The notes beneath the pieces were generated by a model that had not been told where the DNA came from, made no database searches, and was given only the letters and a program-made list of their open reading frames with translations. Shown one piece after another: positions 4,582 to 38,746 of a stretch of DNA of 38,746 nt (within the stretch, counting starts at the first letter, position 1; each line of letters opens with the position of its first letter). Source of the DNA: a virus (taxonomy: Duplodnaviria; Heunggongvirae; Uroviricota; Caudoviricetes); IMG/VR virus record IMGVR_UViG_2740892229_000013; one strand, written 5' to 3'. The position numbers were made by a program, and so were the translations under genes.

Positions 4582-4601
4582 GATTAAGCTCCTTAAAAAA
4601 A

Positions 4602-4805: not shown

Positions 4806-4823
4806 TTTCAAAGCTCCTTTAAA

Positions 4824-5775: not shown

Positions 5776-5787
5776 AACCTTATAGAT

Positions 5788-6096: not shown

Positions 6097-6099
6097 AAC

Positions 6100-6624: not shown

Positions 6625-6628
6625 GTCA

Positions 6629-7093: not shown

Positions 7094-7119
7094 CTTTGTC
7101 TCCCTAATTGATAGCGTGA

Positions 7120-7398: not shown

Positions 7399-7400
7399 AA

Positions 7401-8960: not shown

Positions 8961-9042
8961 AAACCTCTTTCCTTAGTGCCTTTTGTATGTTATTTGGCTA
9001 TTATAATAAGTAAGTGATTACTTAGTGGATTGTAGCAATAAA
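8961..9042. promoter_or_regulatory. divergent promoter/operator region
   Basis: Between divergent helicase and ParB operons; contains TATAAT (9002-9007) and palindrome AAGTAAGTGATTACTT (9008-9023). Confidence 0.45.
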
Positions 9043-9726
9043 ATGGATGTAAAAATCACGATTTTGCAGGTTGATGTTGCCAACCTTCGCCCGAATACCT
9101 GGAACACCAATTCGGTTGGTGCGCAGAATTTTGAAAAACTGAAAGGTTCTATCGAAAAATTGGGCTTTTTTAAGCCAATTTTGGCTCGTGAACTTGAAGA
9201 TGGATTTTTTGAAATCCTCGGCGGCGAACATCGCTGGCGTGCCGCTATTGAGCAAGGAATTTCAACGGTTCCAGTGCTTTCTGTGGGCAAAATTAGCGAT
9301 GTCGTAGCTAAACAGATGTCACTGGTGGACAACGAGCGATACGGTGAAGACGACCAAATCGCATTGCAACGCTTCATTGAAGAAATTCAGTCAGAACTTG
9401 ACTATCAACTGTCTGAAATCGCCCCGTATGACGACGAAATCTCGATGGTTTTAGCAAAAGAGGCGGCAATCGACCTTGAAGCACTGGAGGCGTTGTCTCG
9501 TGGTAGTGATGAGCCTGTCGATACCGACAAACGAGAGAAAACCGAACGTGTGGGGGCGGAACATCAGACCATGCGCTTCAAAGTAACTTTCGATGCGTCA
9601 GATCGTGTTGCAGAAACCATAAAAAACATCATCAAAGAGCAGGCTATTAACACCGGTAATGAAATGGAGAACGCTGGTGAGGCTCTGGTGTGGCTGGTCG
9701 ACTACTACTACAAGGAGCGTATGTAA
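9043..9726 (+). CDS. ParB/Srx-like nuclease-domain protein 1 (possible RHH C-terminus)
   Basis: N-terminal ParB-type motif FEILGGEHRWRAAIEQG; ORF track starts GTG 9025, ATG 9043 preferred. Confidence 0.75.
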   Translation: MDVKITILQVDVANLRPNTWNTNSVGAQNFEKLKGSIEKLGFFKPILARELEDGFFEILGGEHRWRAAIEQGISTVPVLSVGKISDVVAKQMSLVDNERYGEDDQIALQRFIEEIQSELDYQLSEIAPYDDEISMVLAKEAAIDLEALEALSRGSDEPVDTDKREKTERVGAEHQTMRFKVTFDASDRVAETIKNIIKEQAINTGNEMENAGEALVWLVDYYYKERM

Positions 9727-10394
9727 TGACCAAAAAGTTTGAAATCGTATATCGCGACCCGGCAGATCTTATTCCCTATGAGATGAATGCCAAAAAGCAT
9801 GATGAACAGCAGATCCGAGATCTAGCCGCAGCCATTAAAAAGCGCGGATTTGACCAGCCAATTACGGTCGATAAGAACGACGTAATTATTACTGGCCACG
9901 GCCGCCGTGAGGCTGCAATTTTTGCTGGACTTGAGCGCGTACCGGTTATTGTTCGCGATGATCTCAGTGATGACGAGGTTCGTGCGAAGCGCCTTGAAGA
10001 TAACCGACTTGCCAGCATTGATTACGATGCAATTAAGCTACAGAAAGAGCTTGAGTCGCTTGTTCTGGACGATATCGAGGTTTTCGGCTTTGAAGAGCGT
10101 GAGTTGAATGTTCTCGTTGGCAGCATGACAGAAGAAATGGACACCGACTCGCTAGTTATCGATCTTGGCGAAGAAACTAAACGACAGAAGGATGAACACA
10201 CCGAGATCAGTCGTGAAGTTGCAGCGGAAGAAGTACGTGTTGTCGACGTATTGGGCTTTAAAACGCTTCCTGCTGGCTCTGCCATTGTTGTTGGTGATTT
10301 GCTTGCCCACATGGAAGAAATGACGGGAGAAAGCGGGGTAGACGCATTTGTGGCATATGCGGAGAAGATCTCTTCCGGGGAGATGGCTGTATGA
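9726..10394 (+). CDS. ParB/Srx-like nuclease-domain protein 2
   Basis: Motif ITGHGRREAAIFAG; ATG overlaps upstream stop (TAATG); ORF track start 9690 rejected. Confidence 0.75.
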   Translation: MTKKFEIVYRDPADLIPYEMNAKKHDEQQIRDLAAAIKKRGFDQPITVDKNDVIITGHGRREAAIFAGLERVPVIVRDDLSDDEVRAKRLEDNRLASIDYDAIKLQKELESLVLDDIEVFGFEERELNVLVGSMTEEMDTDSLVIDLGEETKRQKDEHTEISREVAAEEVRVVDVLGFKTLPAGSAIVVGDLLAHMEEMTGESGVDAFVAYAEKISSGEMAV

Positions 10395-21367: not shown

Positions 21368-22114
21368 ATGTCTAATACCCATGTAAAAAACATCAAACTT
21401 GGTGCCTGTAAGGTGTCGTTTGGTGGTGTGGATTTGGGTTACACCAAAGGTGGTGTTCAGGTTGAAGTAGCCACTGAAACGCTGAAAGTCACCGTCGATC
21501 AGTTGGGGCAGACCGTAATTTCCGAATTAGTTCAGGGGCGCAACATTACCATCACCGCGCCTCTGGCTGAGTCTGTACTCCAAAACATGGTTGACCTGAT
21601 GCCTGGTTCTACTCTGAGCGAAGATGACAACTCTGTCACGATCACATCTGCACAGGGCGTTAACCTGATTGATGTGGCGAAGGAGCTGGTTCTGACTCCG
21701 CAGGACACCACCGACTATGTGTTGACCATCCCGAAAGCGGCAACCGCGGGCAACTTCACTATGACCTACCAGTCTGATGATGTTCGTGTGTTCTCTGTTC
21801 AGTTCAGCGCATACCCTGATGACGAAGGCGTTCTGGGAAGAATGAGCGGCCCTAAACCGGTAAAAACTGTGTCGATCGCACCGGAATCTCCAACCGTAAA
21901 AGCTGGAGAAACTGTGCAACTGACAGCCGAAATCACTCCAGCTGATGCCGCAGACAAAACCGGTGTTTGGGAATCCGAAGACCAGGAAAAGGCCACGGTA
22001 GATCAAACGGGTCTGGTACGTGGTGTGGCGCAGGGTTCTACAAATATCTCCTTCACCAGCAATAGCGGTGGTAAGAAGGCAACTAAATCAGTAACGATTA
22101 ACCCCGCAGATTAA
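21368..22114 (+). CDS. major tail protein with C-terminal Ig-like domain
   Basis: ORF track 21332..22114; GGAG RBS favours ATG 21368; C-terminal Big_2-like segment; terminator follows. Confidence 0.7.
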   Translation: MSNTHVKNIKLGACKVSFGGVDLGYTKGGVQVEVATETLKVTVDQLGQTVISELVQGRNITITAPLAESVLQNMVDLMPGSTLSEDDNSVTITSAQGVNLIDVAKELVLTPQDTTDYVLTIPKAATAGNFTMTYQSDDVRVFSVQFSAYPDDEGVLGRMSGPKPVKTVSIAPESPTVKAGETVQLTAEITPADAADKTGVWESEDQEKATVDQTGLVRGVAQGSTNISFTSNSGGKKATKSVTINPAD

Positions 22115-22127
22115 TCAGTAATTAAGC

Positions 22128-22156
22128 AGAGGCTCAGGATGGGCCTCTCTTTTAAA
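22128..22156 (+). terminator. rho-independent terminator after major tail gene
   Basis: AGAGGC / GCCTCT stem then CTTTT. Confidence 0.55.
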
Positions 22157-22169
22157 AGGATTTTAACCA

Positions 22170-22487
22170 ATGACCAAATTACTCGATCTCGATTCCATTC
22201 TGCCTCCGAAGAAACGCATCAAATTTGGCGGTCAGGAATATCCCATCGTTGAAATGACGGTAGGTCTGTTCGTTTCCATCAAGCAGATGGAAGGTAAAGA
22301 TCTCATGAACATGTCTCCTGTTGAGCAAGTGACAGCTTATGCAGATCTGGTTCGTAAGGTTATCCCTTCAGTACCTGACGAAGTTCTTGAAAAACTGACT
22401 GTTCCGCAACTCCAGCAGATCTTCACCTTCGCTATGGAAGTGATTGATGAAGAAAACGAAAAAGCGGCTGGCGAAGGGGCAAAGTAA
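22170..22487 (+). CDS. tail assembly chaperone (G-like)
   Basis: 105 aa acidic protein directly upstream of tape measure gene. Confidence 0.6.
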   Translation: MTKLLDLDSILPPKKRIKFGGQEYPIVEMTVGLFVSIKQMEGKDLMNMSPVEQVTAYADLVRKVIPSVPDEVLEKLTVPQLQQIFTFAMEVIDEENEKAAGEGAK

Positions 22488-22837
22488 TTTCCCGCGATGA
22501 ATCCGGGACAAGGACCGTCTCAATAGATCTCGGATTCTATTTCAGTCGTGTAGTTGCTCACTACGCCGTGTCGCCATTAGAGCTACTGAACGTTCCTCTC
22601 ACGATGTTCTGGATGCTCAGTCGCAATATAGACCGTCTGCGTGCGGAAGAGGATGTCCGCAACTTACAAGTCGCTCGTGCGTCCCAGGCGGATGGCGAGG
22701 CTGTGAAGGCGTTCATGGAGGGTTTGCAACTCAGGATTGGAAGACCAGTCGTAACAGATAAAGTCTACGATCCAAGCCAGGATAAGGCAGACCCTGACGC
22801 CAAAGAGCAACTGATGCAAATATTTGGCAGAGGATGA
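22451..22837 (+). CDS. -1 frame extension (T-like) of tail assembly chaperone, predicted programmed frameshift product
   Basis: -1 frame is open from 22451 to TGA 22835-22837 and overlaps the last 12 codons of G; candidate slip site GAAAAAG 22458-22464. Confidence 0.4.
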   Translation, partial: RKRKSGWRRGKVISRDESGTRTVSIDLGFYFSRVVAHYAVSPLELLNVPLTMFWMLSRNIDRLRAEEDVRNLQVARASQADGEAVKAFMEGLQLRIGRPVVTDKVYDPSQDKADPDAKEQLMQIFGRG

Positions 22838-22844
22838 CAAGGGA

Positions 22845-25800
22845 ATGTCACAAAACGTAGAGTTTATCCTGTCGCTGGAAGACAAACAGTTTACAGCGTC
22901 AATCGATCGTGCGGGGAAACTGCTTACTCGATTTGGTGAGCAGGTAACAAAGCCTGCTCAAAAAATCCAAACCTTTGAACGCTCTTTGGGTTCGGTCGCC
23001 CGTATCATTGGCGTTCTGGAAAGCAAGCTCGATTCTACGGCAGATAAACTACAGGATGTAGCTGCCGGTTTTGAGCTTGCTTCAGATGCTACGCGTAAAA
23101 TGCGTGGCAACATCACCAGCCTCAATTCTGGTCTTAAAGCCCTGATTGAGCGCGTCGATACGACAACTTCTTCAGTAGATAAACTCACCGCGTCATTGCG
23201 TAAAGTGCAATCAGAGCTAAATGATTTCTCTGATTGGGCGACCTATGCAAGCAAAAGCGCAAGCCGCTTTGGTACGGAGGTCAAAGAAGCCTCTGTGTCC
23301 GTGAGTGGCATGAATACGCGCCTTAATACCACGACGAAGCGACTCAGTAATTGGGGTGTCACAACGAGTCAGGCTGCCGAGGGACTGAAAAAGGTTCGTG
23401 AGCAGATGGACGAAGTTATCGGACGTCAGCAACTGATTAGCAAGCCGGTACGCGTTCGTACATCTGGAAGTGGCGATGGTGGTAGCGGGCGGCGTAGCGG
23501 CGCTTCTGGCCATAGCGGTAAAAGTAACGAAGGAGGTATGTTCTCTGGCCTTCGTGGCAACATTTTCCTGCTTGGCGAGATCGGAGATGCAGCCAGAACG
23601 GTTACTGACATCATGTTTGGGTGGCAGAAGCCTATTGTTGAAGCTGCGGCCGAAATGGAACGTATGCGGGTGATGCTTCGAGGGTTGAATAAGGAGAAGT
23701 CCAACCCGGGCCAGGCTGCCGCTGATGATATGAAGTACATCGTAGACATGGCTCAAAATGCGCCGTTCGCGATGCAGGCGTTAACAGACTCCTTCGTGAA
23801 GTTTCGTTCTGCTGGCTTAGATCCAACCGATGGTTCTCTGAAGGCGCTGGTGGACTCCGTTGCTCGTTTTGGTGGTGATAGTGAGCTGTTGAAACGTGCG
23901 GCTGTGGCCGTTCAGCAGATGTCCGGTAAGGGCGTTGTGTCAATGGAAGAGCTACGTCAGCAATTAGGTGAAGCCGTTCCTAACGCGATGCAGGCAATGG
24001 CAGACGCCGCAGGCATCACTATGGGGGAACTGACTAAAGCCGTTGCCAGCGGTACGGTTGAGGCAAAACAGGCGTTGTCTCTGATGTTTGTTGGTCTGCG
24101 TGCGGAGAATGAGAACGCAGCGAAAGACATGATGCAAACCTACACAGGTGCGCTGGCGCAACTTCAGACGTCATTCACGTTATTTGCTGATCGGGTTGGT
24201 CAGGCCGGATATCTGGATTCTCTATCGAAGGGGATGAAAGAACTGGCTTCAATCATGAATAGCGCCGAAGGGATTTCGTTTGCCAATTCTTTAGGTTCGG
24301 GGTTAACAACGGCAATCGATGGGTTGCGTCAGCTTGCTCAATGGTTAGCAAAGAACCAAGAGCTGGTAATTAATCTCGGTAAGGTCGTGGCCGCGATGGT
24401 TGCGTTCAAACTGATGCGAGCAGGGATCATGGGGGTAGTTGGCGCAGGCAGCCAGATGGTTAGCACCTTTGCCACGATGGCGACAGCCATACAGACTCCA
24501 TTTAACCTCGGCGCTACAGCAGTAACCCGATTCAATCGTGCGGCACGTATGGGGCTGGCTCCGATCCCCTCTCTTATTTTCGCCATCCGTGGGGCGATTA
24601 CGGGGCTTAAAGGCGCTTTTGCTGGATTAACGGCGTTCATTGCAGCAAACCCTATAGGGGCAGCATTTACAGTTGCCACTGTAGCTGTTGCTGGCCTAAT
24701 CACGTACATGACCATGCTCCGCAGCGAAACTTCAAAGGTCGTTGACGAGATTAGGAAAATACCAGAGGCGATGACAGCGGCCAAACGAGCACAGATGGCC
24801 GATCGCGCAGAAAAGCTCGAAAAGCAGATTCTCGCTGATCAACGAGCATTAAAAAATGGTGAGGGCGTTAATTACGTATCTAACTCTGCCGGTGTTATTA
24901 CTCACAAAGAGTCGAAGGCTGACATCGAAGCACGCCTGAAAAAAAATCAGGAAGAGTATCAAAAGATAACCGGCACGATAGCTCTTGGTGACGGCGCTGT
25001 AGCAAAGCGTTTGGCTAAAGAGGCTGCCGAATCTCAGATTGAGAAAATTCGAGCGGAAAACCAGATTTTCGCGGCAACATTCGTGAAAGCCCGGCAGGAG
25101 GCTCTGGATAAGATCCAGAAAATCAATGATGACGGTTCACTTTCAGATGACGAAAAGAACAAGCTATTGGCACCGTTACGTGAAACGGTAAACAAAAGCT
25201 ATCTGGAGCCTGCGCAAAAACTGGTTGATTCACTTTCTTCTCGTAAGAATGCGACCGAGAAGCAAATCGCGACTCTTAATGATCAGCTTGAAAAAGCCAA
25301 AAAGGATGGAAATACCGAGCAGATCCAGAAACTGCAAGGCAGTATTCGTGGTTATCAGGAGCATTTGGAAGCCGTTGCTCAGGAGCTGACTCAGGCAGAG
25401 TTCGAGAGAGATAACGCGGCCAAAACTGGTAAGGGCGTAATGTCAAACCAGGGGACTGTTCTTGGGTTAGGTACAACTGATAAAGCTGCTCAGAAGGCGC
25501 TGGCGCAATATATGCGAAACCAGATGGATTCTGCGACTTATCAACGTACTTTGCCTGACGGCACTCCGATGATGGACTTCGAAGGTAAGCCGATTATTGG
25601 GCCTAAACAACTCAAGACGCAGCTTAATTTGCAGAAAGCATCCAGCGCCAGCTCTCTGGAGAAAATGAGCGATGAAGAGCGTGCCGCAGCCATTGCTGCA
25701 CTGACTAAAGCTCGTGAACAGGATGCAGCAGCTGCCGAGAAAGCAGCCCAACGATCAGCTAACGCCTCGCAGCGTGCGGCCAAGAAGGAACAGGCAGCGC

Positions 25801-27398
25801 AACAGAAACTGGCAGCCGGATACCAGAAGGCTCTGGACAAAGCCGATCAGCTTATGGGGCAAATGGGTGAAAGCTCTAAGGCTACGGTATCGTTTGATCA
25901 GTCTCTTCGCGATACAACGAAATCGCTGACAGATTTGGCTAATGCGGTTCCTAACGAGTTCATCACTCAAGAGATGATCGACAAGGCGAAAAAACGTCTT
26001 GAAGACCTCAAAAATGCGACACCTGAATATCGCGAGATGTTTAATCGCCGCAATGTTGAGCAGATGATCTCCACTTGGGCACCGGAGGCGGATTCCATTA
26101 TTAGTGCTGGCTATACGCCGTCTCGCGAAGATAAAGTTGCTGATTTCGAAGACACCTACAACCGCAATCTCAAAGCGTTGATAGAACTTCGTGATAAGGC
26201 GTCTGATCCTAAAGTTGTGGCGCTTTATACAAAGAAAATCAATCAACTGATTGCTGCTGGCAATACCGCGCTTATTAAAGAGACGGGGACTGCGACGCAG
26301 AAGTTGGCACTGGAATACGAAAACTTGGCAGAGCAGATCGAAAGCACCTGGACTGATTTGTTTAGTGGCTTAACTGATGTCCTGACTGATTTCGTTATTA
26401 ACGGGAAGATGAGCTTCTCCAGCCTATCTCAGTCCATTTTGAAAGATATCACCAATATGGTCGTGAAGTCGCAAATCACGCTGCCTCTAATGAACATGTT
26501 GGGGATGGGAACCACCGCAGCTGGTAGTTCACAGAGTGGCAATTTGCTCACTGGAGTTGCTTCTGCCGTTGCCAATCAAGGTGTACGAATGGGCAACACT
26601 GTTAATGGCGACAAGTCGGTAGGAGAAGCCACGAAGGAGACGTCCAGTTCGGTAACTGGATTGGGGCAAACAACACAGCAGACCACCAGCGCAATTGGCA
26701 CAGCAACAAATGCGATTGGTAGCTGGGTATCGGGGCTATTTGATAGCACCGAAGCCAAAGATGCCGAGACAAAAGCCGTGAAGGACTCCATCTTCTCGAT
26801 GCAGAACCTCAGCTCTGTTACCGGCGCGCTGTCTGCCGCGTTTGCAATGCTTGGAGCTAATGCTTCCGGCTCTGGTAATAAGTGGTTGAGTTTTGGAGCA
26901 ACGGTTGCATCTGGTCTTGTTTCAGCTTGGGCTGGCGGTGGTTTCGACAGCTTGACATCAAGCTCTGCTAAAACCGCAACCAGCAGTGTGGCTGACGGAA
27001 CTAAAGGCATTCCTGCAATCCCGAAGTTTGCAAATGGAGGAATATTCGGAAAAGACGGCGTGATCCCGCTCCGGGCATACCAGAAAGGCGGTATTGCTAA
27101 CTCGCCTCAATTAGCGTTGTTTGGGGAAGGTTCTATGAATGAGGCGTATGTTCCATTGCCTGATGGCCGAACAATCCCTGTAACGCTCAGTACCGATGGT
27201 ATGAGTGGAGGCGGAAATGTTCTTTCTCCTGTATCAATTGAGATCAACGTCCATAGTGACGGTAGCACAACTGAATCCGGCGATACAGAAAGCATATGGA
27301 ACAATGCCGCTCAACGGATGAAAGCAATCGCGCTTGAGACTATCGCTCAAGAGAAACGCCCTGGCGGATCACTCAACCCAAACACTCAACGTAACTAA
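22845..27398 (+). CDS. tape measure protein
   Basis: About 1517 aa, coiled-coil and Gly/Ala-rich hydrophobic segments; GAGGA RBS; ORF track start 22824 is TTG. Confidence 0.9.
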   Translation: MSQNVEFILSLEDKQFTASIDRAGKLLTRFGEQVTKPAQKIQTFERSLGSVARIIGVLESKLDSTADKLQDVAAGFELASDATRKMRGNITSLNSGLKALIERVDTTTSSVDKLTASLRKVQSELNDFSDWATYASKSASRFGTEVKEASVSVSGMNTRLNTTTKRLSNWGVTTSQAAEGLKKVREQMDEVIGRQQLISKPVRVRTSGSGDGGSGRRSGASGHSGKSNEGGMFSGLRGNIFLLGEIGDAARTVTDIMFGWQKPIVEAAAEMERMRVMLRGLNKEKSNPGQAAADDMKYIVDMAQNAPFAMQALTDSFVKFRSAGLDPTDGSLKALVDSVARFGGDSELLKRAAVAVQQMSGKGVVSMEELRQQLGEAVPNAMQAMADAAGITMGELTKAVASGTVEAKQALSLMFVGLRAENENAAKDMMQTYTGALAQLQTSFTLFADRVGQAGYLDSLSKGMKELASIMNSAEGISFANSLGSGLTTAIDGLRQLAQWLAKNQELVINLGKVVAAMVAFKLMRAGIMGVVGAGSQMVSTFATMATAIQTPFNLGATAVTRFNRAARMGLAPIPSLIFAIRGAITGLKGAFAGLTAFIAANPIGAAFTVATVAVAGLITYMTMLRSETSKVVDEIRKIPEAMTAAKRAQMADRAEKLEKQILADQRALKNGEGVNYVSNSAGVITHKESKADIEARLKKNQEEYQKITGTIALGDGAVAKRLAKEAAESQIEKIRAENQIFAATFVKARQEALDKIQKINDDGSLSDDEKNKLLAPLRETVNKSYLEPAQKLVDSLSSRKNATEKQIATLNDQLEKAKKDGNTEQIQKLQGSIRGYQEHLEAVAQELTQAEFERDNAAKTGKGVMSNQGTVLGLGTTDKAAQKALAQYMRNQMDSATYQRTLPDGTPMMDFEGKPIIGPKQLKTQLNLQKASSASSLEKMSDEERAAAIAALTKAREQDAAAAEKAAQRSANASQRAAKKEQAAQQKLAAGYQKALDKADQLMGQMGESSKATVSFDQSLRDTTKSLTDLANAVPNEFITQEMIDKAKKRLEDLKNATPEYREMFNRRNVEQMISTWAPEADSIISAGYTPSREDKVADFEDTYNRNLKALIELRDKASDPKVVALYTKKINQLIAAGNTALIKETGTATQKLALEYENLAEQIESTWTDLFSGLTDVLTDFVINGKMSFSSLSQSILKDITNMVVKSQITLPLMNMLGMGTTAAGSSQSGNLLTGVASAVANQGVRMGNTVNGDKSVGEATKETSSSVTGLGQTTQQTTSAIGTATNAIGSWVSGLFDSTEAKDAETKAVKDSIFSMQNLSSVTGALSAAFAMLGANASGSGNKWLSFGATVASGLVSAWAGGGFDSLTSSSAKTATSSVADGTKGIPAIPKFANGGIFGKDGVIPLRAYQKGGIANSPQLALFGEGSMNEAYVPLPDGRTIPVTLSTDGMSGGGNVLSPVSIEINVHSDGSTTESGDTESIWNNAAQRMKAIALETIAQEKRPGGSLNPNTQRN

Positions 27399-27403
27399 CT
27401 ATC

Positions 27404-27440
27404 GACTGCCCCGACCGGGGCAGTCTCACAAGGATGTGAG
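27404..27440 (+). promoter_or_regulatory. stem-loop plus RBS-sequestering inverted repeat upstream of gpM-like gene
   Basis: GACTGCCCC/GGGGCAGTC (27404-27425) and CTCACA-AGGA-TGTGAG (27425-27440) enclosing the Shine-Dalgarno. Confidence 0.4.
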
Positions 27441-27776
27441 ATGGAAAGACAAACGTTTAATTGGTATCCAGATTACGAATCTGAAAAAAGCGTAAAACCG
27501 AATGTAACTGTACTTAATTTTGGTGATGACTACGAGCAGCGACAGGCTCAAGGTCTTAATCGTATTAAAGAAGAATGGTCGTTAACCTTTACCAGATCAT
27601 ACAACGAAATTAATGCAATCGATGACTTCCTGACTGAGCGATCAGGCGTTGAATCGTTCTATTGGGTTAATCCAAGAGGCAAGCAGATTGTAGTTGTATG
27701 TGACAGTCATACGGTCAAGCGATATCAGGGGTACTGTGTCTTAACTGCTACATTCAGACAAGTATTTGAGGCTTAA
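27441..27776 (+). CDS. minor tail protein M-like
   Basis: 111 aa; FGDDYEQR..GLN pattern resembles lambda gpM (from memory); synteny before L-K-I-J. Confidence 0.8.
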   Translation: MERQTFNWYPDYESEKSVKPNVTVLNFGDDYEQRQAQGLNRIKEEWSLTFTRSYNEINAIDDFLTERSGVESFYWVNPRGKQIVVVCDSHTVKRYQGYCVLTATFRQVFEA

Positions 27777-27858
27777 GTATCTGGATAAGTAAGTACTAAT
27801 TTACTATCATTGTGGCGCTGACAGGATGTTAGCGCTTACTTATTTTAAGGATGAAACA

Positions 27859-28557
27859 ATGGGAATTAAAGCTGATATTCAGAGCTTATCTCCCTCTGCA
27901 CTCATTGAGTTGTTCGTATTGGATATGTCGAACACAACTTCAGGGGGGAAGCTATTCTTCCACGCCGGAACAAACGAACTGATGCAACCGGTCGTCTGGC
28001 AAGGAGTGACATACGAGCCGTGGCCAATCAAAGCATCAGGCTTTGACAAAACTGGCCAGGGAACGTTGCCACGTCCAAAAATTCAGGTATCGAACTTTGC
28101 CGGAACCGTCTCTGCGGAAGTTCAGGCGAACGACGATCTTGTTGGCTGCCGCATTATTCGCAAGATGACGCTGGCTCGCTTCCTCGATGCCGTTAATTTT
28201 AAAGACGGCAACCCAACAGCAGATCCAAACCAACATTTCCCGGATGAAATGTGGTTTATCGAACAGAAAACTCTCGAAACTCATCAGGTTGTCGAGTTTG
28301 AATTGTCCAGTGTGTTCGATTTGATGGGGGTGCAACTGCCGTATCGTCAGATCATTAAAAACACCTGCCCGTGGAAATACCGAGGGCCAGAATGCGGCTA
28401 TACCGGTCCATATTTCGACAAAAATAACCAGCAGACGTCTATGTCTGGTGCTGATTACTGCACAAAACGTTATGACGCCTGTAATGCGCGTCGGAATTAT
28501 TTTGCCGACGGTGTGATCCATTTTGGCGGATTTATTGGAGCTACGCGGTATGGGTAA
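27859..28557 (+). CDS. minor tail protein L-like
   Basis: Motifs VWQGVTYEPWPI, RFLDAVNFKDGNPTADP, CPWKYRGPECGYTGP match lambda gpL pattern (from memory); ORF track start 27826 rejected for RBS. Confidence 0.9.
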   Translation: MGIKADIQSLSPSALIELFVLDMSNTTSGGKLFFHAGTNELMQPVVWQGVTYEPWPIKASGFDKTGQGTLPRPKIQVSNFAGTVSAEVQANDDLVGCRIIRKMTLARFLDAVNFKDGNPTADPNQHFPDEMWFIEQKTLETHQVVEFELSSVFDLMGVQLPYRQIIKNTCPWKYRGPECGYTGPYFDKNNQQTSMSGADYCTKRYDACNARRNYFADGVIHFGGFIGATRYG

Positions 28558-29347
28558 TAAAGCAATCCCTGAGCTTGGCTCTGACGTTATGCAGCAAATC
28601 TATCTCTGCGCCATAAATCGCTACCCTAATGAAGCGTGTGGCTTTCTGGTTAGAACTAATGGCGACAAATATCGCTTTATGGAAGCGCGGAATGTTTCGG
28701 AGAACCCGCAGAACACTTTTGTAATGCACGTTGACGACATTATGGCGGCAGAGGATGCGGGTGATGTTATCGCAATCTGGCATTCACATACTGATGAATC
28801 AGCAGAAGCATCTGATGCCGATCGTGCAGGCTGCGAAGCGACGGAAGTTCCGTGGATGATTCTGGCTATTCGCAAGAATGTTGAGGGAGATGCCCCTTTC
28901 CATTTTAGCGAGATGAATGTGATCACTCCTGATGGTTTCGAAATGCCATACCTGGGCAGACCGTATGTATTTGGCGTATTTGATTGCTGGATGTTGTGTC
29001 GGGACTATTTGAAGCGTGAGTTTAACGTCGAACTAAACCCGAACGCACACCTGCATATTCCATCGTGGTACACCGGCGATAACGACATTCTCGATCAGAA
29101 CTACCGAAACGAAGGATTGGTACGGCTTGCGCCCGGAACAGAACCTCAACGTGGGGACGTCTTCTTTATCCAATACGGGAAAATGCCTGACCACTGCGCG
29201 GTTTATATCGGCGATGGAATGATTCTTCATCACCAGATCGACCGCCTAAGTTGTCGTGCTTATTACGGCGGAATGTATCAGAAACATACGACGCATCACT
29301 TGCGTCACAGAGACTTGCTCAAGGGAGATGAGACGTGTCTGAGTTAG
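28550..29347 (+). CDS. tail tip assembly protein K-like (JAMM/MPN + NlpC/P60)
   Basis: HSHTDESAEASDAD metal-binding-type motif; Cys in FDCWMLCRDY; GGAG RBS; overlaps L stop. Confidence 0.85.
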   Translation: MGNKAIPELGSDVMQQIYLCAINRYPNEACGFLVRTNGDKYRFMEARNVSENPQNTFVMHVDDIMAAEDAGDVIAIWHSHTDESAEASDADRAGCEATEVPWMILAIRKNVEGDAPFHFSEMNVITPDGFEMPYLGRPYVFGVFDCWMLCRDYLKREFNVELNPNAHLHIPSWYTGDNDILDQNYRNEGLVRLAPGTEPQRGDVFFIQYGKMPDHCAVYIGDGMILHHQIDRLSCRAYYGGMYQKHTTHHLRHRDLLKGDETCLS

Positions 29348-29925
29348 TTCATGTGCAGCTTGGCGGCCCTATGGCCAAACATTTTGGCCGCCACTGGCAT
29401 CTAAAGGTGCGTAATACAAAACAGGCTCTGGATTTAATTGAGGCCAACAAGCCTGGGTTTAAAGCATGGATGAAGCGCAATATCAAAACCTATGACAGAT
29501 ACCACATCCAGATCACCAATAAACAGGGCCACAAGTGGTCTGTGGACGAGAGTGAATATCAGATGATGGGGCAGTCTGACAATATTGCAAAAATCCGCAT
29601 TACCCCTGTTCCGCGAGGAAGTGGTGGATCTGCTTTTGGATGGTTTCAGACGGTTGTTGGAGCAGTATTAATGGTTGCCTCGATATGGGTGCCCGCTCTT
29701 GCGCCTCTCGGTTTGTCACTGATGATGGGCGGTATAGCGCAAATCATATCTCCGCAAGCCACTAACGAAAGTGTGAGGCAGGCGGATAACTCGAACTCTT
29801 ATTACTTTGATGGACCTCAAAACACAACAAACCAGGGGAACCCTGTACAGCTTATCTATGGCGAGGAAATTTTAGTTGGCTCACAGGTCGTGAGTTCTTC
29901 TATCACCATCGACCAGCTTATGTAA
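29335..29925 (+). CDS. tail tip assembly protein I-like
   Basis: Position between K-like and J-like; hydrophobic central segment; GTG start with AGGGAGA RBS. Confidence 0.75.
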   Translation: MSELVHVQLGGPMAKHFGRHWHLKVRNTKQALDLIEANKPGFKAWMKRNIKTYDRYHIQITNKQGHKWSVDESEYQMMGQSDNIAKIRITPVPRGSGGSAFGWFQTVVGAVLMVASIWVPALAPLGLSLMMGGIAQIISPQATNESVRQADNSNSYYFDGPQNTTNQGNPVQLIYGEEILVGSQVVSSSITIDQLM

Positions 29926-29942
29926 TCAAGGATTTTTTGGAC

Positions 29943-32900
29943 ATGGAACAGTTCAAGAAGAAAAAATTACCGCTTCTTATTGCCGGTGCTGGTGGCAAGA
30001 AAAGTAAAAGCTCCAGCCGTACCCCGGTTGAAGCTGATGATACTGTCAATTCTCGTGCTATGGCAGCCATCCTCGACCTTCTTGGCGAGGGGGTTATCGG
30101 TGGCCTGGTAAATGGCGCAAAGTCGATCTTCATCGACGATTTACCGATCTTGAATGAAGATGGCTCTTCCAACTTCAGCGGTATTACATGGGATTTTCGT
30201 GACGGCTCACAAGATCAGACGCCAATGGCTGGTTTTGATTTTGTCGAAACGCCTAAGTCCGTAAATATTCAGCTTAAAAAAACACACGACGTTACGGTTT
30301 CAATCGATAACGATGAAGCTGATCGCGTTCGTGTCATCATGAAATTCCCCTCTTTACGTAGCGTTGATAAAAGCTCTGGCGATACAAATGGCACTACGGT
30401 GAAGTACAAATTCCAGATCGCCAACGCAGACGCAACATTTTCTGATGTAGTGGCAGAAGGTGAGAAAAGCGTTGATATCACGCTAACGGCAAAGAAAACC
30501 GGCGTGTATTACCGTAGCTATGAGCTGAAACTGCCTAAGCCTGGTCGTGCATACAAGGTTAGGGTGATTCGTCTTACAGATGATAATAGTAGCCAGTACC
30601 TCTACAACGACACATGGGTTGATTCCATCGGTGAGATTGTCGACACGCCAATGAACTACCCTAACTCTGCTCTTGTTGGCTTGAAGGTCAATTCAGAGCA
30701 GTTTGGTAGCACAATGCCTTCCCGTTCGTATTTGGTGCGCGGTATCAAAATCCGAGTACCGTCAAACTACAACGAATACACCAATACTTATGTCGGCGTA
30801 TGGGACGGTACTTTTAAGCTGTTGTCTTCTTCAAACCCTGCGTGGATTCTCTACGATTTGCTTACCAATACTCGGTATGGTCTTGGGCAATTTGTGTCGG
30901 AATCCATGATTGACCTCGGCCAGCTCTACCAGATTGGTCGATATTGTGACGAAGAGGTCGATGATGGCTTTGGGGGTAAAGAGAAACGCTTTGCAATCAA
31001 TACGCAGATCACCAGTCGACAAGACGCATACCGATTAATTCAGGATATTGCCGGTGCATTCCGCGGCATGGTGTTTTGGGCTGGTGGCATGGTTAACATC
31101 ATGCAGGATAGCCCATCAGATCCGGTAATGATGTTTACCAACTCCAACGTCAAAGATGGACTGTTTACCTATAAAGGTTCTGCGCGTAAAGATCGCCCAT
31201 CCGTTGCGCTCGTAACCTACAACAACAAGGAGGACGGTTATAAGCAAAACATCGAGTACGTTGAAGATCAGGACGCAATGCGCCGTTATGGTGAGCTTAA
31301 AACAGAAGTCGTAGCATTTGGGTGTACAAGCCGAGGCCAGGCTCACCGAGTAGGTTTGTGGCTTTTGTATACCGCCAGAATGGAGTCGGATGTAATTACA
31401 TTTACTGCCGGCTTAGACGCCTCATTTCTGATGCCTGGTGAAACCGTTCTGATTCAGAACAAATATCGTGCAGGTAAACGTAACTCCGGTCGAATTGTGG
31501 AGTTTGCCAAAAACAGCATCACTCTCGATGCGCCTGTGTCGTTAGCTAAAAGCGGCAGCTTTATTCGGATATTGAATCAGGAAGGCAAAATCGTTGAACG
31601 CGATGTTCTTGAAACTGGCGAAAACATAACAAAGGTTACGTTTTCAAAAGCCCTGTCGTCAGCGGAAACGCCTGTTTTGAACGGTGTCTGGACAATTACA
31701 GAACCAGATCTCGAACCTATGCGCGTTCGCATCGTTAACATCGCGCAGGGGGAAACGCCGGGTAGCTTTGACATCACCGCTGTTGAGAACAATCCGTCTA
31801 AATATGAGGCAATCGACAATGGTGCAACGCTGATCCCGCAGAATACGACGGTATTGGACCCGACTTACTCCAAGCCATCTAATTTGCAAATCACTGAAGG
31901 GACTTATCTCTCAAGCCCGGGCAACCTGTCAGTAAAACTGACTGCAACATGGGAAGGGAAATCTCCAGAGTATTGGATCAGTTGGCGACGTTCTGATGAA
32001 AACAATGTATCGAACTGGCAATCGGCGCGTGTAACCGAAGAGCAATACGAAATCGTTAATGTCGCGGAGAATGGACGCTACGACTTCCAACTGTATGCGG
32101 TTTCATTCAACGGTAAAAAAACAGAGATTATCAGTACCGTTTATCAGGTGTTGGGCACAATGACACCGCCGGATGCCCCAACGTCATTAACGGCCGTTGG
32201 AGACTATCGTAATGTGATACTGAATTGGGTTAATCCAGATTCGGTAGACCTTGATCACATTAATGTTTACGCATCCCAGACCAACAATCTGGATACGGCG
32301 AAACTGATCGCAGAGTCTGCAAGCACCACCTTTACACATGCTGGTCTTGGGGATAGCGAAACGTGGTATTACTGGGTTCGAGCATCGAACAAGCGAGGTA
32401 TGTTAAGCCCTCCGAACTCAAACTTGGGTACAGAGGCGACAACTCGCGATGTACTGTCGTTCCTGGCTGGCAAAATTACATCTTCCGAGCTTGGTCAGGC
32501 TCTGCTTGAGGACATCAACAGCAAAGCCTCTCAAGAAGCAGTTGACGAGTTAAATGAGCATATCAACCAGAGCGTCGAATCTTTGGAGGGGGCGGTAAAC
32601 GACGTTAAGGAAGATATAGCTGAATTAGATAAGCAGTTCAGCGATAACCTCGCGGATTTTGAAATAAAATTCAACGAGCGTAGCGATGCTTTGGAGAACG
32701 CACAAACCGAGCTTAAAGGTGAGGTTTCGGCAACGATCGACAAGGTCAATGAAGCGTTTGAAAAAATTGATGCTACTGATGCTGCAATTGTTGAAATCGA
32801 AAACACCGTATCTGAACACGATAAAGCTCTCGCTAATACAGTCGAGGCAATAAAGGCTGCAAGAGATGAAGCGGCGGCTCTTATTGCTAAGGAAAGCGAG

Positions 32901-34568
32901 GCTCGTGTTGAAGGCGATGCTGCAAACGCTAAACAACTGGAAGTGTTGCAGTCAACGGTAGAGGAAAGCTCCGCTGCCGTTGAAGAAATGAAAAAGACGG
33001 TTGCAGAGGTCGATCGTGCCAGTGCAGAACTGACTACGAACATTGAGGCGTTAGCCAAAACAAATATTGACCTGGCTCTTCGTCAAGATGAAGACCAGCA
33101 CAAGCAGATGGTCAATAACGCGAAGATCGCAACAACACAGAAAACCTTTGCTGATGATATGTCTGCAATGGCCACGAAGGTTGAGGAAATTCGCGTAGAA
33201 ATTGGCGAAGACATTAAGGCCAGTATTCTGGAAGAGTCCACCGCTCGTGCCGATGGCGATGAAGCGTTGGCAAAGCGTGTCACTCAGCTGCAATCTAAGT
33301 TTGAAGGAGATATCAGCTCGGCGATTAGTACAGAGCAGGAGGCTCGTACATCTGCCGATGAAGCTCTGACGACACAGATCACTCAGCTTGAGTCGAAAGT
33401 AAGCAACGATATCGTCGCAGCTATTAAGGAAGAGCAAGAAGCCCGAGCAACGGAAGATTCGGCTCTGGCAAGCCAGATCACCCAACTTCAGGCAAAGGTT
33501 GACGGTGATATATCCGCTGCCATCACTCAGGAGCAGGAGGCCAGAGCAAGTGCTGACCAGGCGCTCTCACGAGAAATTAACAGCCTGCGAGCACAAACCG
33601 GAACTGATATTGCCGCAGCGGTTGCTGTAGAGACAAAGGCAAGGACTGATGCCGATAGTGCATTGTCCACTCAGATTACGTCTCTTACAGCAAAAGCTAA
33701 TGATCTCGAGGCATCTCTTGCCAGAGAAACAACGGCTCGTGCTGATGGTGATACCGCTTTAACAAAAGAGGTTTCAAGTTTAAAAGCACAGACAGCGAAA
33801 GATATTAGTGCGGCCGTTGCAGTTGAAACGCAGGCTCGAACTGATGCTGACTCGGCGTTGTCGTCTCAGATCACCAAGCTGACCTCTCAATACAAAGAGG
33901 ATATTAAAGCGGCTGTAGCAACCGAAACGAAAACGCGTACAGAGCAAGATGCTGCATTGGCGACTCAAATCACAAACTTAGAGTCTCAAACGGCAGCCAA
34001 CATTTCCGCGGCGGTAACAACTGAAACGACAGCGAGAACGCAGGCAGATAATGCTCTGAGTGGGCGAATCGATACTCTGAAAGCAGAGGTGGATGGAAAT
34101 ACCGCGACAATTCAACAGCAGGCAACAGCTATTGCTGATACCAACAAAAAAGTGTCAACCGCGTGGACGTTGAAAATGGAAACTTCAACGAGCGGAGGGC
34201 AGAAGTATGTTGCTGGTATTGCGCTTGGTATCGACACCACTGGCCTTTCTCAGTTTTTGGTGCAGGCTGACAGGTTTGGTTTGGTCAACTCTGTTAACGG
34301 GAAGATCACCACGCCATTTGTTATCGAAAACAGTATCGCCTATATGAATGGTGCGTATATCAAGGATGGCACAATCACCAATGCAAAAGTAGGCGATCTG
34401 CAATCTACCAATTTTGTTAGCGGTAGATCTGGATGGCGGTTCGGCAAAAATGGAACGCTTGAGATCAACGGTAATAGCGGGGGTAATGGGCGACTGGTCA
34501 TAAATGGTCAGCGGATTGACGTTTATGACGATAACAACGTCCTACGAGTAAGAATTGGCCTTCTGTAA
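29943..34568 (+). CDS. tail tip/host-specificity protein J-like with inserted coiled-coil repeat region
   Basis: Conserved J-like blocks PNSALVGLKVNSEQFGS, AFGCTSRGQAHRVGLWLL, KYVAGIALGIDTTGLSQFLVQADRFGLVN; AAGGA RBS; ORF track start 29937 is TTG. Confidence 0.9.
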   Translation: MEQFKKKKLPLLIAGAGGKKSKSSSRTPVEADDTVNSRAMAAILDLLGEGVIGGLVNGAKSIFIDDLPILNEDGSSNFSGITWDFRDGSQDQTPMAGFDFVETPKSVNIQLKKTHDVTVSIDNDEADRVRVIMKFPSLRSVDKSSGDTNGTTVKYKFQIANADATFSDVVAEGEKSVDITLTAKKTGVYYRSYELKLPKPGRAYKVRVIRLTDDNSSQYLYNDTWVDSIGEIVDTPMNYPNSALVGLKVNSEQFGSTMPSRSYLVRGIKIRVPSNYNEYTNTYVGVWDGTFKLLSSSNPAWILYDLLTNTRYGLGQFVSESMIDLGQLYQIGRYCDEEVDDGFGGKEKRFAINTQITSRQDAYRLIQDIAGAFRGMVFWAGGMVNIMQDSPSDPVMMFTNSNVKDGLFTYKGSARKDRPSVALVTYNNKEDGYKQNIEYVEDQDAMRRYGELKTEVVAFGCTSRGQAHRVGLWLLYTARMESDVITFTAGLDASFLMPGETVLIQNKYRAGKRNSGRIVEFAKNSITLDAPVSLAKSGSFIRILNQEGKIVERDVLETGENITKVTFSKALSSAETPVLNGVWTITEPDLEPMRVRIVNIAQGETPGSFDITAVENNPSKYEAIDNGATLIPQNTTVLDPTYSKPSNLQITEGTYLSSPGNLSVKLTATWEGKSPEYWISWRRSDENNVSNWQSARVTEEQYEIVNVAENGRYDFQLYAVSFNGKKTEIISTVYQVLGTMTPPDAPTSLTAVGDYRNVILNWVNPDSVDLDHINVYASQTNNLDTAKLIAESASTTFTHAGLGDSETWYYWVRASNKRGMLSPPNSNLGTEATTRDVLSFLAGKITSSELGQALLEDINSKASQEAVDELNEHINQSVESLEGAVNDVKEDIAELDKQFSDNLADFEIKFNERSDALENAQTELKGEVSATIDKVNEAFEKIDATDAAIVEIENTVSEHDKALANTVEAIKAARDEAAALIAKESEARVEGDAANAKQLEVLQSTVEESSAAVEEMKKTVAEVDRASAELTTNIEALAKTNIDLALRQDEDQHKQMVNNAKIATTQKTFADDMSAMATKVEEIRVEIGEDIKASILEESTARADGDEALAKRVTQLQSKFEGDISSAISTEQEARTSADEALTTQITQLESKVSNDIVAAIKEEQEARATEDSALASQITQLQAKVDGDISAAITQEQEARASADQALSREINSLRAQTGTDIAAAVAVETKARTDADSALSTQITSLTAKANDLEASLARETTARADGDTALTKEVSSLKAQTAKDISAAVAVETQARTDADSALSSQITKLTSQYKEDIKAAVATETKTRTEQDAALATQITNLESQTAANISAAVTTETTARTQADNALSGRIDTLKAEVDGNTATIQQQATAIADTNKKVSTAWTLKMETSTSGGQKYVAGIALGIDTTGLSQFLVQADRFGLVNSVNGKITTPFVIENSIAYMNGAYIKDGTITNAKVGDLQSTNFVSGRSGWRFGKNGTLEINGNSGGNGRLVINGQRIDVYDDNNVLRVRIGLL
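33240..34100 (+). repeat. about 9 tandem 33-aa (99-bp) coiled-coil repeats within J-like gene
   Basis: Repeated pattern DISAA..EQEAR..AD.AL..QIT.L..K. Confidence 0.7.
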
Positions 34569-34660: not shown

Positions 34661-35623
34661 ATGTGGTACAGGGAAGGTACTATCACATTTACACAGGGCA
34701 GCAATACTCTGGTTGGGGCAGGGACAGCCTGGAACGTAACAGCTAATGGTGTGTTGCCGGGGATGATCGTCATTGGCCCCGACAATAAGCTGTATGAGAT
34801 CAAGCGCGTAACCAGTGATACGAACATTGTTCTCTCAGAACCTTATACCGGCGAAACTCAGTCTGAAGTTCCGTGCCGAATCATTACGACCTATGAAGGC
34901 GACTTAACACAGTTTAGCGCGCGCTTTACAGCACTAATGTCGCGTATGTCGGCTGATTCCAAGTCCATGCGCAGTTGGTTGACTGCTCTGGATGAGGTGA
35001 CAATCGAGCGTGAAGACGGTACAGAAGTGACCGTTAAGCCGCTAATGCAGATCGTCAACGAGCACAACGAAAACGTTGAGTGGTATAAAAATAACACTGA
35101 CGCGATTGATGCTGCTGGCGACAAAGCTCGTGAGGCGGCGGCCAGTGCTGCCGCAGCAGCAGAAAGCGCCAATATCGCTGGAGAAAAAGCCTCTCAAGCG
35201 TCTCAAAGTGCATCCGCTGCAGAGTCCTCAAAAAGCGCGGCGGCCACCAGTGCCGGTGCCGCGAAAACGTCTGAAACGAATGCTGCAGCGTCACAAAAAT
35301 CTGCAGCCACTTCTGCATCCACCGCGACCACGAAAGCGTCAGAAGCTGCCACCTCAGCCCGGGATGCGGCGGCCTCAAAAGAGGCAGCGAAATCATCAGA
35401 AACGAGCGCAGCCTCGAGCGCCAGTAATGCCGCTTCCTCGGCAACGGCGGCAGGAAATTCCGCGAAGGCGGCAAAAACGTCCGAGACGAACGCCAGGTCT
35501 TCTGAAACGGCAGCGGGACAGAGCGCCTCGGCTGCGGCAGGCTCAAAAACAGCGGCTGCGTCGTCTGCCAGTGCAGCGTCAACAAGTGCCGGGCAGGCCT
35601 CAGCCAGTGCCACCGCCGCCGGA
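34661..35623 (+). CDS. tail fibre protein with Stf-like Ala/Ser-rich central repeats, 3-prime end lost at N gap
   Basis: AAGGAG RBS; unique N-terminal about 150 aa then Ala/Ser/Thr-rich repeats nearly identical at DNA level to 36548-36815 and 36826-37170; runs into gap at 35624. Confidence 0.65.
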
Positions 35624-35633
35624 NNNNNNNNNN
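35624..35633. other. run of 10 N (assembly/scaffold gap 1)
   Basis: Literal n characters; reading frame and gene identity change across it. Confidence 0.95.
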
Positions 35634-35708
35634 GTCGCTTATGAAGGCTCCGGCAGTGGTGACTGGCGCACTGACGGGTTCATCGTGGGTGTTGGTTATA
35701 AATTCTGA
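35634..35708 (+). pseudogene. lom: 3-prime remnant of lom-like outer-membrane protein gene (last 24 codons)
   Basis: Encodes VAYEGSGSGDWRTDGFIVGVGYKF-stop, matching the lambda Lom C-terminus as I recall it; no upstream part present. Confidence 0.7.
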
Positions 35709-35734
35709 TTAGCCAGGTAACACAGTGTTATGAC

Positions 35735-35761
35735 AGCCCGCCGGTTCAGGCGGGCTTTTTT
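35735..35761 (+). terminator. rho-independent terminator
   Basis: AGCCCGCC (35735-35742) / GGCGGGCT (35749-35756) then TTTTT. Confidence 0.75.
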
Positions 35762-35772
35762 GTGGGGTGAAT

Positions 35773-38746
35773 ATGGCAGTAAAAATTTCAGGTGTACTGA
35801 AAGACGGCACAGGAAAACCGGTACAGAACTGCACAATCCAGCTGAAAGCAAAACGTAACAGTACCACGGTGGTGGTGAACACGCTGGCATCTGAAAATCC
35901 GGATGAAGCCGGGCGTTACAGTATGGACGTTGAGTACGGTCAGTACAGCGTTATTCTGTTGGTGGAAGGATTCCCGCCGTCACATGCCGGGACCATCACA
36001 GTGTATGAAGATTCCCGACCCGGTACGCTGAATGATTTTCTCGGTGCCATGACGGAGGATGATGCCCGTCCGGAGGCACTGCGCCGTTTTGAACTGATGG
36101 TGGAAGAGGTGGCGCGTAACGCGTCCGCGGTGGCACAGAACACGGCAGCCGCGAAGAAGTCAGCCAGCGATGCCGGCACATCAGCCCGTGAGGCGGCAAC
36201 CCATGCGACTGATGCTGCAGGCTCAGCACGTGCAGCCAGCACATCAGCCGGGCAGGCCGCGACGTCGGCTCAGTCAGCGTCTTCCAGCGCAGGAACGGCA
36301 TCAACAAAGGCTACTGAAGCATCAAAAAGTGCTGCCGCTGCAGAGTCCTCAAAAAGCGCGGCGGCCACCAGTNNNNNNNNNNCGCAGCCAGCACGTCAGC
36401 CGGACAGGCCGCGTCGTCGGCTCAGTCAGCGACTTCCAGCGCAGGAACGGCATCAACAAAGGCCACTGAAGCATCAAAAAGTGCTGCCGCTGCAGAGTCC
36501 TCAAAAAGCGCGGCAGCTACCAGTGCCAGTGCCGCGAAAACGTCAGAAACGAATGCGGCAGCGTCACAACAATCAGCAGCCACTTCTGCATCCACCGCGA
36601 CTACGAAAGCGTCAGAAGCTGCCACCTCAGCCCGGGATGCGGCGGCTTCAAAAGAGGCGGCAAAATCATCAGAAACGAACGCATCCTCGAGCGCCAGTAG
36701 CGCAGCTTCCTCGGCAACAGCGGCAGGAAATTCCGCGAAGGCGGCAAAAACGTCAGAGACGAACGCCAGGTCTTCTGAAACGGCAGCGGGACAGAGCGCC
36801 TCGGCTGCGGCAGGCNNNNNNNNNNGGCAGCGTCACAAAAATCTGCAGCCACTTCTGCATCCACCGCGACCACAAAGGCGTCAGAAGCTGCCATCTCAGC
36901 CCGGGATGCGGCGGCCTCAAAAGAGGCAGCGAAATCATCAGAAACGAACGCATCATCAAGTGCCAGTAGTGCAGCTTCCTCGGCAACGGCGGCAGCAAAT
37001 TCTGCGAAGGCGGCAAAAACGTCCGAGACGAACGCCAAGGCTTCTGAAACGGCAGCGGGACAGAGCGCCTCAGCTGCGGCAGGCTCAAAAACAGCGGCTG
37101 CATTATCTGCCAGTGCCGCGTCAACAAGTGCCGGGCAGGCCTCAGCCAGTGCCACCGCCGCCGGAAAATCGGCAGAAAGTGCTGCATCGTCTGCTTCAAC
37201 AGCCACAACGAATGCTGGCGAAGCCGCTGTACAGGCCAGCGCAGCAGCGAGGTCAGCTTCCGCAGCGAAGACATCCGAGACGAACGCGAAAGCGTCGGAA
37301 ACCAGCGCAGAATCCTCAAAAACGGCAGCGGCATCGTCCGCCAGTTCGGCGGCGTCATCGGCATCATCGGCGTCTGCTTCAAAAGATGAGGCGACCAGAC
37401 AGGCGTCAGCAGCGAAGAGCAGCGCCACGACGGCATCCACGAAAGCAACAGAGGCGGCAGGCAGTGCGACGGCGGCAGCACAGAGCAAAAGTACGGCGGA
37501 ATCCGCGGCAACGCGCGCCGAGACAGCGGCAAAACGGGCAGAGGATATTGCATCCGTCGTGGCGCTTGAGGATGCGAGCACGACGAAAAAGGGGGTAGTA
37601 CAGCTCAGCAGTGCGACCAACAGTACGTCTGAAACGCTGGCGGCAACGCCAAAGGCAGTAAAATCAGCCTATGACAATGCAGAGAAACGTCTGCAGAAAG
37701 ACCAGAACGGCGCTGATATACCCGACAAGGACCGCTTCCTGAGTAACATTAATGTTTACAGCAAAGGTGAAGTGGATCAGAAAAAGGGGATGCGATACGT
37801 TGTGGTAAATGCCCCGGCGGGTGTCCAGGAAGGTAAATATTATCCGTTAGTGATAAAAAGGAATGACAGCCATCGGGCATCCCGCGTTGTCATTTCAACG
37901 CCAAGTCGCTCAGCTAATCACAGAATGAATAATTGTGAGTTTAATGGTTTTGTTTGCGCAGGCGGCTGGACGGACCGGGGTAGCTATGCCTGTGGTATGT
38001 TCTGGGCTTATTCAACATCGGAACGCGCTATTCATTCCATTCTGATGAGTAATAAAGGCGATACCGTAGACAGCGTATTCTATATAGAAGGTGGGGCATT
38101 TCCCGTAGAGGTCTTTTTAGAAGAAGGTCTCTCCGTTACTGCACCTGCTTCTGATTATATTGTTGCTGAAACGACTTATAAATTTGGCGCAACTGATCCT
38201 TATTCTGAATCAGTTGCGGTAAATTTAATTTTAGATTTTAAACAAGGTAATGGATTTTATAGTTCATATCCTGTTTTGAGTAAGTCAGACATTAGCGGGA
38301 ATAAGATTTACGCTAATGATGAAGTTATTGTCCGTAGTCAGAACGCGTTAAGGATGATTGCAGGTGATTACGGTGTCATATGGCGAAATGATGGAGCAAA
38401 TACTTACTTGCTCATGACTGATAAAGGCGACCAGTACGGTGGCTGGAACGGTCTTCGACCATTTGCAGTAAATAACGCAACAGGTGAAGTGACGATCAAT
38501 ACACCACTTAATTCTCCTAAGGGGATTAAGGGAAATTCTGATACAGCTACGAAACTTCAGACAGCAATAAAAATATCTGGTGTTTCGTTTGATGGTTCTA
38601 CTGATATCACTTTAACCGCTGCGCATGTTGCTGCTTTTGCCAGAAGAGCAACGGATACGTATGCCGATGCGGATGGGGGCGTTCCATGGAATGCCGAATC
38701 AGGCGCTTACAATGTCACCCGCTCTGGCGACAGCTATATTCTGGTT
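35773..38746 (+). CDS. stf: lambda Stf-like side tail fibre, interrupted by two N gaps, 3-prime partial
   Basis: N-terminus MAVKISGVLKDGTGKPVQNCTIQLKAKRNSTTVVVN matches lambda Stf as recalled; frame 1 to 36372, frame 0 for 36384-36815, frame 2 from 36827 to window end with no stop. Confidence 0.8.
36373..36382. other. run of 10 N (assembly/scaffold gap 2)
   Basis: Literal n characters; flanks are about 93 percent identical redundant copies. Confidence 0.95.
36816..36825. other. run of 10 N (assembly/scaffold gap 3)
   Basis: Literal n characters; sequence after gap restarts about 270 bp upstream in the repeat unit. Confidence 0.95.

Follow-up and report, generated by a model that had tools for sequence, protein, structure and literature searches.

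The right end of the window (the whole stretch of DNA that was analysed, 38,746 nucleotides in length) is very probably a chimeric scaffold induced by repeats. In this reading, to which we give a probability of about 90% from comparison of the sequence with closed genomes, positions 34661-38746 would consist of four short-read contigs derived from three fibre genes on two replicons and placed one after the other with spacers of 10 Ns. The feature flagged in an earlier note on this DNA, a fibre locus interrupted by three gaps, is an ordinary assembly artefact and not a real feature of the phage. Each of the pieces (called A to D here) is itself an ordinary and near-identical member of a known gene: an SSU5-like fibre gene (A), a lambda-type lom-stf pair (B and D) and a Qin-type stf (C). 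The pieces were placed by comparison with closed genomes of relatives, not with the source strain itself. The features concerned are the following.

29937-34568, plus strand: TipJ-type tail tip protein of an SSU5-like phage-plasmid (Pfam PF24801, PF13550 and PF09327), the last complete gene ahead of the problem region.
34661-35623, plus strand: piece A, the 5' part of a tail-fibre gene (321 codons), cut at gap 1; 99.88% identical to CP027358.1 and open in frame 1.
35624-35633: gap 1, 10 N, flanked on the left by phage-plasmid fibre shaft and on the right by the lom 3' end from a chromosomal prophage.
35634-35708, plus strand: start of piece B, the 3' end of an Ail/Lom family gene (24 codons and the stop); the 5' 176 codons are absent.
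35735-35756, plus strand: terminator-like hairpin between lom and stf, whose 8-bp stem includes 7 GC pairs and precedes a T run; a consensus match only.
35773-36372, plus strand: remainder of piece B, in which the gene of a lambda-type side tail fibre (Stf; PF08400) begins; 200 codons are present before gap 2 cuts it.
36373-36382: gap 2, 10 N, where B has very probably been falsely joined to a paralogous contig.
36383-36815, plus strand: piece C, a 433-nt shaft fragment of the stf of a Qin-site-type prophage, very probably misplaced between B and D.
36816-36825: gap 3, 10 N, where C has very probably been falsely joined to D.
36826-38746, plus strand: piece D, codons 212-851 of the Stf begun in B (PF21446, Gp34_trimer), running off the end of the window.

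Four pieces result from the gaps at the right end of the window: A extends up to 35623, B spans 35634-36372, C spans 36383-36815 and D spans 36826-38746. As the earlier note had reported, each of the three N runs is exactly 10 nt long; there are no further ambiguous bases in the window. The same note had placed all of them within Ala/Ser/Thr-rich coding repeats. This does not apply to gap 1, whose right flank is composed of the end of lom, the hairpin and the start of stf. The repeats around the two other gaps are readily recovered. The 141 nt preceding gap 2 (36232-36372) agree with the segment just past it (36384-36524) at 134 of 141 positions, or 95.0%, where approximately 93% over some 140 nt had been estimated. 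After gap 3 the sequence restarts 269 nt upstream (the estimate had been about 270 bp), with 239 identical positions out of 259 (92.3%) between 36826-37084 and 36557-36815. Matches of this kind, extending over hundreds of bases at 92-95% identity, are far above chance.

Tandem Repeats Finder, run on the window, reports a 269-nt array of 2.0 copies that spans the gap 3 repeat. This array is confined to the window and was not found in the three closed stf/fibre genes. The Ala/Ser/Thr-rich open frame also changes at each gap, from frame 1 in A to frame 0 in B and frame 2 in C, exactly as had been noticed before, and it returns to frame 1 in D. A tRNA scan of the window detected none.

Exact repeat runs are places where short-read contigs end. 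Such a run is present at the 3' end of each piece that precedes a gap: the last 48 nt of A are an exact copy of 37118-37165 (in D), the last 38 nt of B are an exact copy of 35214-35251 (in A) and the last 60 nt of C are an exact copy of 35483-35542 (also in A). When seven sequences are aligned, the end of A, the end of B, the whole of C and the start of D fall in register over one stretch of shaft of about 530 nt, each beside its own closed reference. The in-register overlap of C is 141 nt with B and 259 nt with D.

Searches of closed genomes returned two types of record: plasmid-sized elements of about 110 kb with a fibre gene after TipJ, and chromosomal lambdoid prophages with stf after lom. 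Mapping of the window piece by piece parts these two types cleanly. Positions 55-35623 are colinear with a plasmid of about 113 kb from E. coli (CH4804 unnamed3), as they are with E. coli phage-plasmids of about 110 kb, and the colinear part of the reference plasmid has annotated ParB-like genes. Over 17.8 kb, the region 8000-30000 is 81% identical to Salmonella phage SSU5; with the E. coli relatives of SSU5 (CMS-2020a, PhiR41_1 and Cyrano) its identity is 95-98%. Because of this colinearity and of the identity to SSU5 and its E. coli relatives, we consider the body of the window to be an SSU5-like phage-plasmid. These phage-plasmids constitute a well-described group and have been reported to be exclusively extrachromosomal (PMC9600943). 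The nearest closed copy of the body is plasmid unnamed3 of E. coli 2013C-4991 (CP027358.1). There are no mismatches to it over 12 kb (window 21943-33999), and two in A.

Piece A would be what is left of the tail-fibre gene in this phage-plasmid, namely its 5' third. It lies directly after the identical TipJ, and its 99.88% identity is to the first 321 codons of the SSU5-like fibre (CP027358.1; phages Cyrano and CMS-2020a). Public assemblies contain 440 blocks that encode exactly this 1541-aa TipJ, counted from the ATG at 29943. In the closed contigs of about 110 kb that carry this identical protein, the fibre gene downstream is unbroken and has 1385 codons. The window includes 321 of these; about 1064 codons are missing together with the downstream lysis genes, and prophage sequence is found instead. 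Past the point where A ends, the closed copies have sequence that shares 89% identity with D up to position 37680 and is unrelated to D further on. A draft assembly of the same plasmid (JABUQJ010000015.1) stops 14 nt short of the end of A, and another, independent draft contig stops 256 nt past it. Within TipJ, the coiled-coil region displays periodicity at the protein level only; a DNA-level repeat search of this region found none.

Pieces B and D would be consecutive parts of the lom-stf region of a single chromosomal lambdoid prophage, with a true spacing of 33 bp. In the prophage of NCTC9113 located beside ompT/envY (reference L002), B corresponds to 6001-6736 at 98.8% identity and D to 6770-8689 at 99.84%. 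Since the match of B is 98.8% and not about 100%, this home prophage is only approximate. D is 99.7-99.8% identical to the stf genes of seven closed chromosomes, and the distance from B to D (33 bp, or 11 codons, in frame) is also the same in seven closed chromosomes. If the stf part of B, the 33 reference bases and D are joined, a stop-free frame of 851 codons is obtained, whose product is identical to the Stf of the NCTC9113 prophage at 850 of 851 amino acids. The earlier note had proposed that a scaffolder joined contigs overlapping in a repeat, in an order other than that of the genome; the 33-bp spacing of B and D and the restored Stf frame bear this out. It had also described the pairing of N-terminal and C-terminal domains as unresolved. 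Comparison largely settles this pairing: D pairs with B, and the C-terminal two-thirds of A are absent.

The order of lom, terminator and stf is that of the lambda-like lom-stf region seen in the NCTC9113 prophage and in Escherichia phage PhiR30_1. The protein encoded by B matches PF08400 (phage_tail_N) with E = 5e-73 at residues 1-134, covering the whole 134-position profile. The window differs from these relatives in several respects. Its stf is split by the foreign contig C and two N runs and lacks the 33 bp. Its Ail/Lom gene is limited to the last 24 of 199 codons, a fragment at a contig end and not a full beta-barrel gene; the translation of 35634-35708 (VAYEGSGSGDWRTDGFIVGVGYKF, followed by the stop) is the C-terminus of the 199-aa Lom of NCTC9113. 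The last 280 or so codons of stf and tfa lie beyond the end of the window. While the 3' end of lom is directly upstream of stf, the J gene farther upstream is that of the other element, and the full J/lom/stf/tfa context is present only in the L002 reference.

Plasmids carrying these sequences were also sought. No SSU5-like plasmid with the unique lom-stf part occurs among the 25 plasmid matches listed. The sole plasmid of about 111 kb among the 25 listed lom-stf matches is an IncI2 plasmid carrying a complete lambdoid prophage. For the D module at high identity on plasmids of SSU5 size, the best value was 91.6%, and continuation of A into D was judged unlikely.

Piece C would be a fragment from another stf, that of a second prophage in the chromosome. 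Over all 433 nt it is 100% identical to a Qin-site lambdoid prophage stf (E. coli B379 and the 2013C-4991 chromosome), which adjoins tfaQ/pinQ/ydfK in the closed chromosomes CP090456.1 and CP027355.1. Against the B/D reference its identity falls to 93.75%, and against the plasmid fibre to 92%. The window has just this internal fragment and neither of its own flanks. The printed order, which had already been doubted, is contradicted by closed genomes: in reference coordinates C overlaps B at its end and D at its start and yet is identical to the stf of the other prophage, and A continues differently in the closed plasmids.

How the scaffold arose can be proposed from the element that the three fibre genes would have in common. 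This is an Ala/Ser/Thr-rich shaft of roughly at least 530 nt, with 92-95% nucleotide identity and exact runs of 38-60 nt. Through read pairs, or through a reference layout, B, C and D may have come to be placed against the end of A, and the overlapping contigs would then have been set in series according to their projected starts with a minimum gap between them. The scaffolder was presumably unable to merge these contigs because their overlaps are just 92-95% identical. On the coordinates of A, the derived projected starts are 34513 for B, 35111 for C and 35285 for D. This is the order in the scaffold, an agreement expected by luck in one case in six. The frame changes, the apparent 'tandem' repeats of 141 and 269 nt and the truncated genes would all follow from the contig layout, and none would be a property of the phage. 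The earlier view of overlapping contigs joined by a scaffolder therefore stands as far as the joining is concerned, but not for the assumption of one locus. With overlaps only 92-95% identical, the pieces are not overlapping contigs of a single locus. They appear to be paralogous stretches of three fibre genes and, since these lie on two replicons, the scaffold would be chimeric and not merely redundant.

The region has the usual attributes of a repeat-induced scaffold misjoin: gaps of fixed and minimal length, contig ends in exact repeats, overlaps in register, genes truncated at the gaps and an order contradicted by closed genomes. Nothing notable sets it apart from other misjoins; the twist lies in the involvement of two replicons and three genes. 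A literature search for an assembler-specific convention of 10 Ns turned up just two uses of such runs: a gap in a single assembly, and a spacer in scaffold concatenation. Ten Ns also serve as a plain spacer for contig concatenation (PMC9894930).

Other explanations have to be weighed against this evidence. If the printed order were real, there would be a single fibre locus with tandem duplications of the shaft, and the N runs would be small unsequenced holes. The repeat copies do lie head to tail, as the two-copy 269-nt array of Tandem Repeats Finder reflects, and repetitiveness is general among fibre shafts. We give this explanation almost no credence: it requires a fibre shaft joined to the last 24 codons of lom at gap 1 and a change of frame at every gap, none of the closed stf or fibre genes compared contains the 269-nt array, and the closed genomes place B and D 33 bp apart and assign C, at 100%, to another gene. 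The join could be an artefact and the plasmid fibre nevertheless truly run into the distal part of D (from 37166), the duplicate having been collapsed into one contig. The exact 48-nt identity between the end of A and 37118-37165 would fit this, as would the presence of the D-like distal module, over its whole length, on some SSU5-like plasmids (CH4804 type, 91.5%). However, the distal fibre differs in the plasmid that matches 12 kb of the window without a mismatch, D-like modules reach at most 91.6% on plasmids compared with 99.8% on chromosomes, and D is unbroken through the 48-mer. We consider such a continuation very unlikely. A further version of the artefact, in which the contigs would stem from several strains in a mixed or metagenomic sample and would not be paralogues within one genome, is improbable. 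In its favour, an exact-pattern scan of viral contigs for the gap 1 junction gave no match. Against it, E. coli genomes commonly have several copies of the fibre region (the median is 2 places per genome and the maximum 15), and the closed genome of 2013C-4991 contains both A (99.9%, on the plasmid) and C (100%, on the chromosome). A mixed-strain origin would not change the verdict of an artefact.

There is also the possibility of a true mosaic or cointegrate, in which the phage-plasmid would have gained the lom-stf of a lambdoid prophage or recombined with a prophage through the common shaft. The 92-95% identity of the shaft between phage-plasmid and prophage elements would permit this, lambdoid prophages can reside on plasmids, and fibre modules are exchanged among SSU5-like plasmids and prophages (a D-like module is present in the CH4804 type and not in the 2013C-4991 type). 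Homologous recombination in the shaft, however, would place a D-type shaft after A, where the window has a truncated lom. Moreover, lom-stf follows the fibre gene in none of the closed SSU5-like records examined, and each junction coincides exactly with an N run. We therefore hold a mosaic to be highly improbable. It is just as hard to believe that the scaffold links reflect a real recombinant subpopulation, in which the plasmid fibre and the prophage stf swap C-terminal (receptor-binding) modules or form cointegrates through the shaft. If true, a single culture would have captured a plasmid-borne phage and an integrated one in the act of exchanging fibre modules.

The chimeric scaffold thus remains the preferred reading, and it affects the use of this record. 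Read literally, the window would give the phage-plasmid two fibre genes, the remnant of a lom gene and a tandem shaft, none of which would exist. From 34661 to 38746, gene calls, host-range predictions based on the fibre C-terminus, prophage/plasmid boundaries and repeat counts would all be wrong, and whatever lies past 35623 should be separated from the phage-plasmid. A shaft of about 0.5 kb, 92-95% identical between SSU5-like fibres and lambdoid Stf, would be sufficient to cause repeated assembly breaks and mis-scaffolding at one spot. The fibre genes of unrelated phages have shaft segments in common and swap their distal modules, a mosaicism that is well known. Swapping of distal modules is visible here too, with two kinds of distal module among the SSU5-like plasmids.

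The distal modules of the fibre gene differ among SSU5-like phage-plasmids and fall into alternative types. In the type carried by CH4804, the distal module is 91.5% identical over its whole length to the lambdoid Stf of piece D (window 36826-38742 against 7287-9202 of reference locus L001), whereas the types of 2013C-4991 and Cyrano diverge totally from piece D beyond the point matching window 37680 (after 9139 in reference locus L008 and 14196 in L010). The receptor-binding part is truly mosaic between phage-plasmids and chromosomal prophages. The intact fibre gene of the closed 2013C-4991 plasmid also carries a genuine repeat, in a part of the gene that is not in the window:

CP027358.1 (L008) 9761-10067: 120-nt tandem repeat in the distal half of the intact phage-plasmid fibre gene, with about 2.2-2.5 copies at 75% identity.

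The fibre shaft, the Ala/Ser/Thr-rich stretch common to these genes, is a recurrent contig breakpoint. Contigs of this phage-plasmid in two other drafts, assembled independently, also stop within it: JABUQJ010000015.1 at 13667, which is 14 nt before the position at which piece A (the 5' part of the phage-plasmid fibre gene) ends, and QBCW01000013.1 at 13937, 256 nt past that position. Piece A differs from the closed plasmid CP027358.1 at just two bases, window positions 35335 and 35575, and both are in the shared shaft; the preceding 12 kb of the window has no mismatch to that plasmid. At 35335 the window has the base found in piece C (a fragment of the stf of a Qin-site prophage) and at 35575 that of the Qin-type stf reference. 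These could be due to reads from a paralogue contaminating the consensus or to a small gene-conversion tract.

In the shaft (36826-37560 and, generally, 35100-37560), four of the six reading frames are free of stop codons and this generates long spurious ORFs (for example, one of 339 aa on the minus strand at window 36601-37620). This may explain the odd antisense gene calls of 227 aa within the fibre gene on two reference contigs, L011 and L013.

The gene for the tail tip protein, TipJ, just upstream, encodes a periodic segment:

Window 33309-34100: long Ala/Glu/Thr-rich segment of TipJ, residues about 1123-1372.

The periodicity is 33 residues, with the motif DIxAAxxxExxARxxADxAL. There are six strict matches in TipJ, spaced by 33, 33, 33, 65 and 66 residues. 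No repeat was detected at the DNA level. The size of TipJ varies among relatives: 1541 aa in the window compared with 1575 aa in both CH4804 and Cyrano.

Finally, window 4598-4811 and 5786-7157 give no megablast match to the CH4804 phage-plasmid, which is elsewhere colinear. Since the corresponding region of the CH4804 plasmid includes an ISVsa5 transposase, the comparison points to a variable accessory locus of the phage-plasmid.
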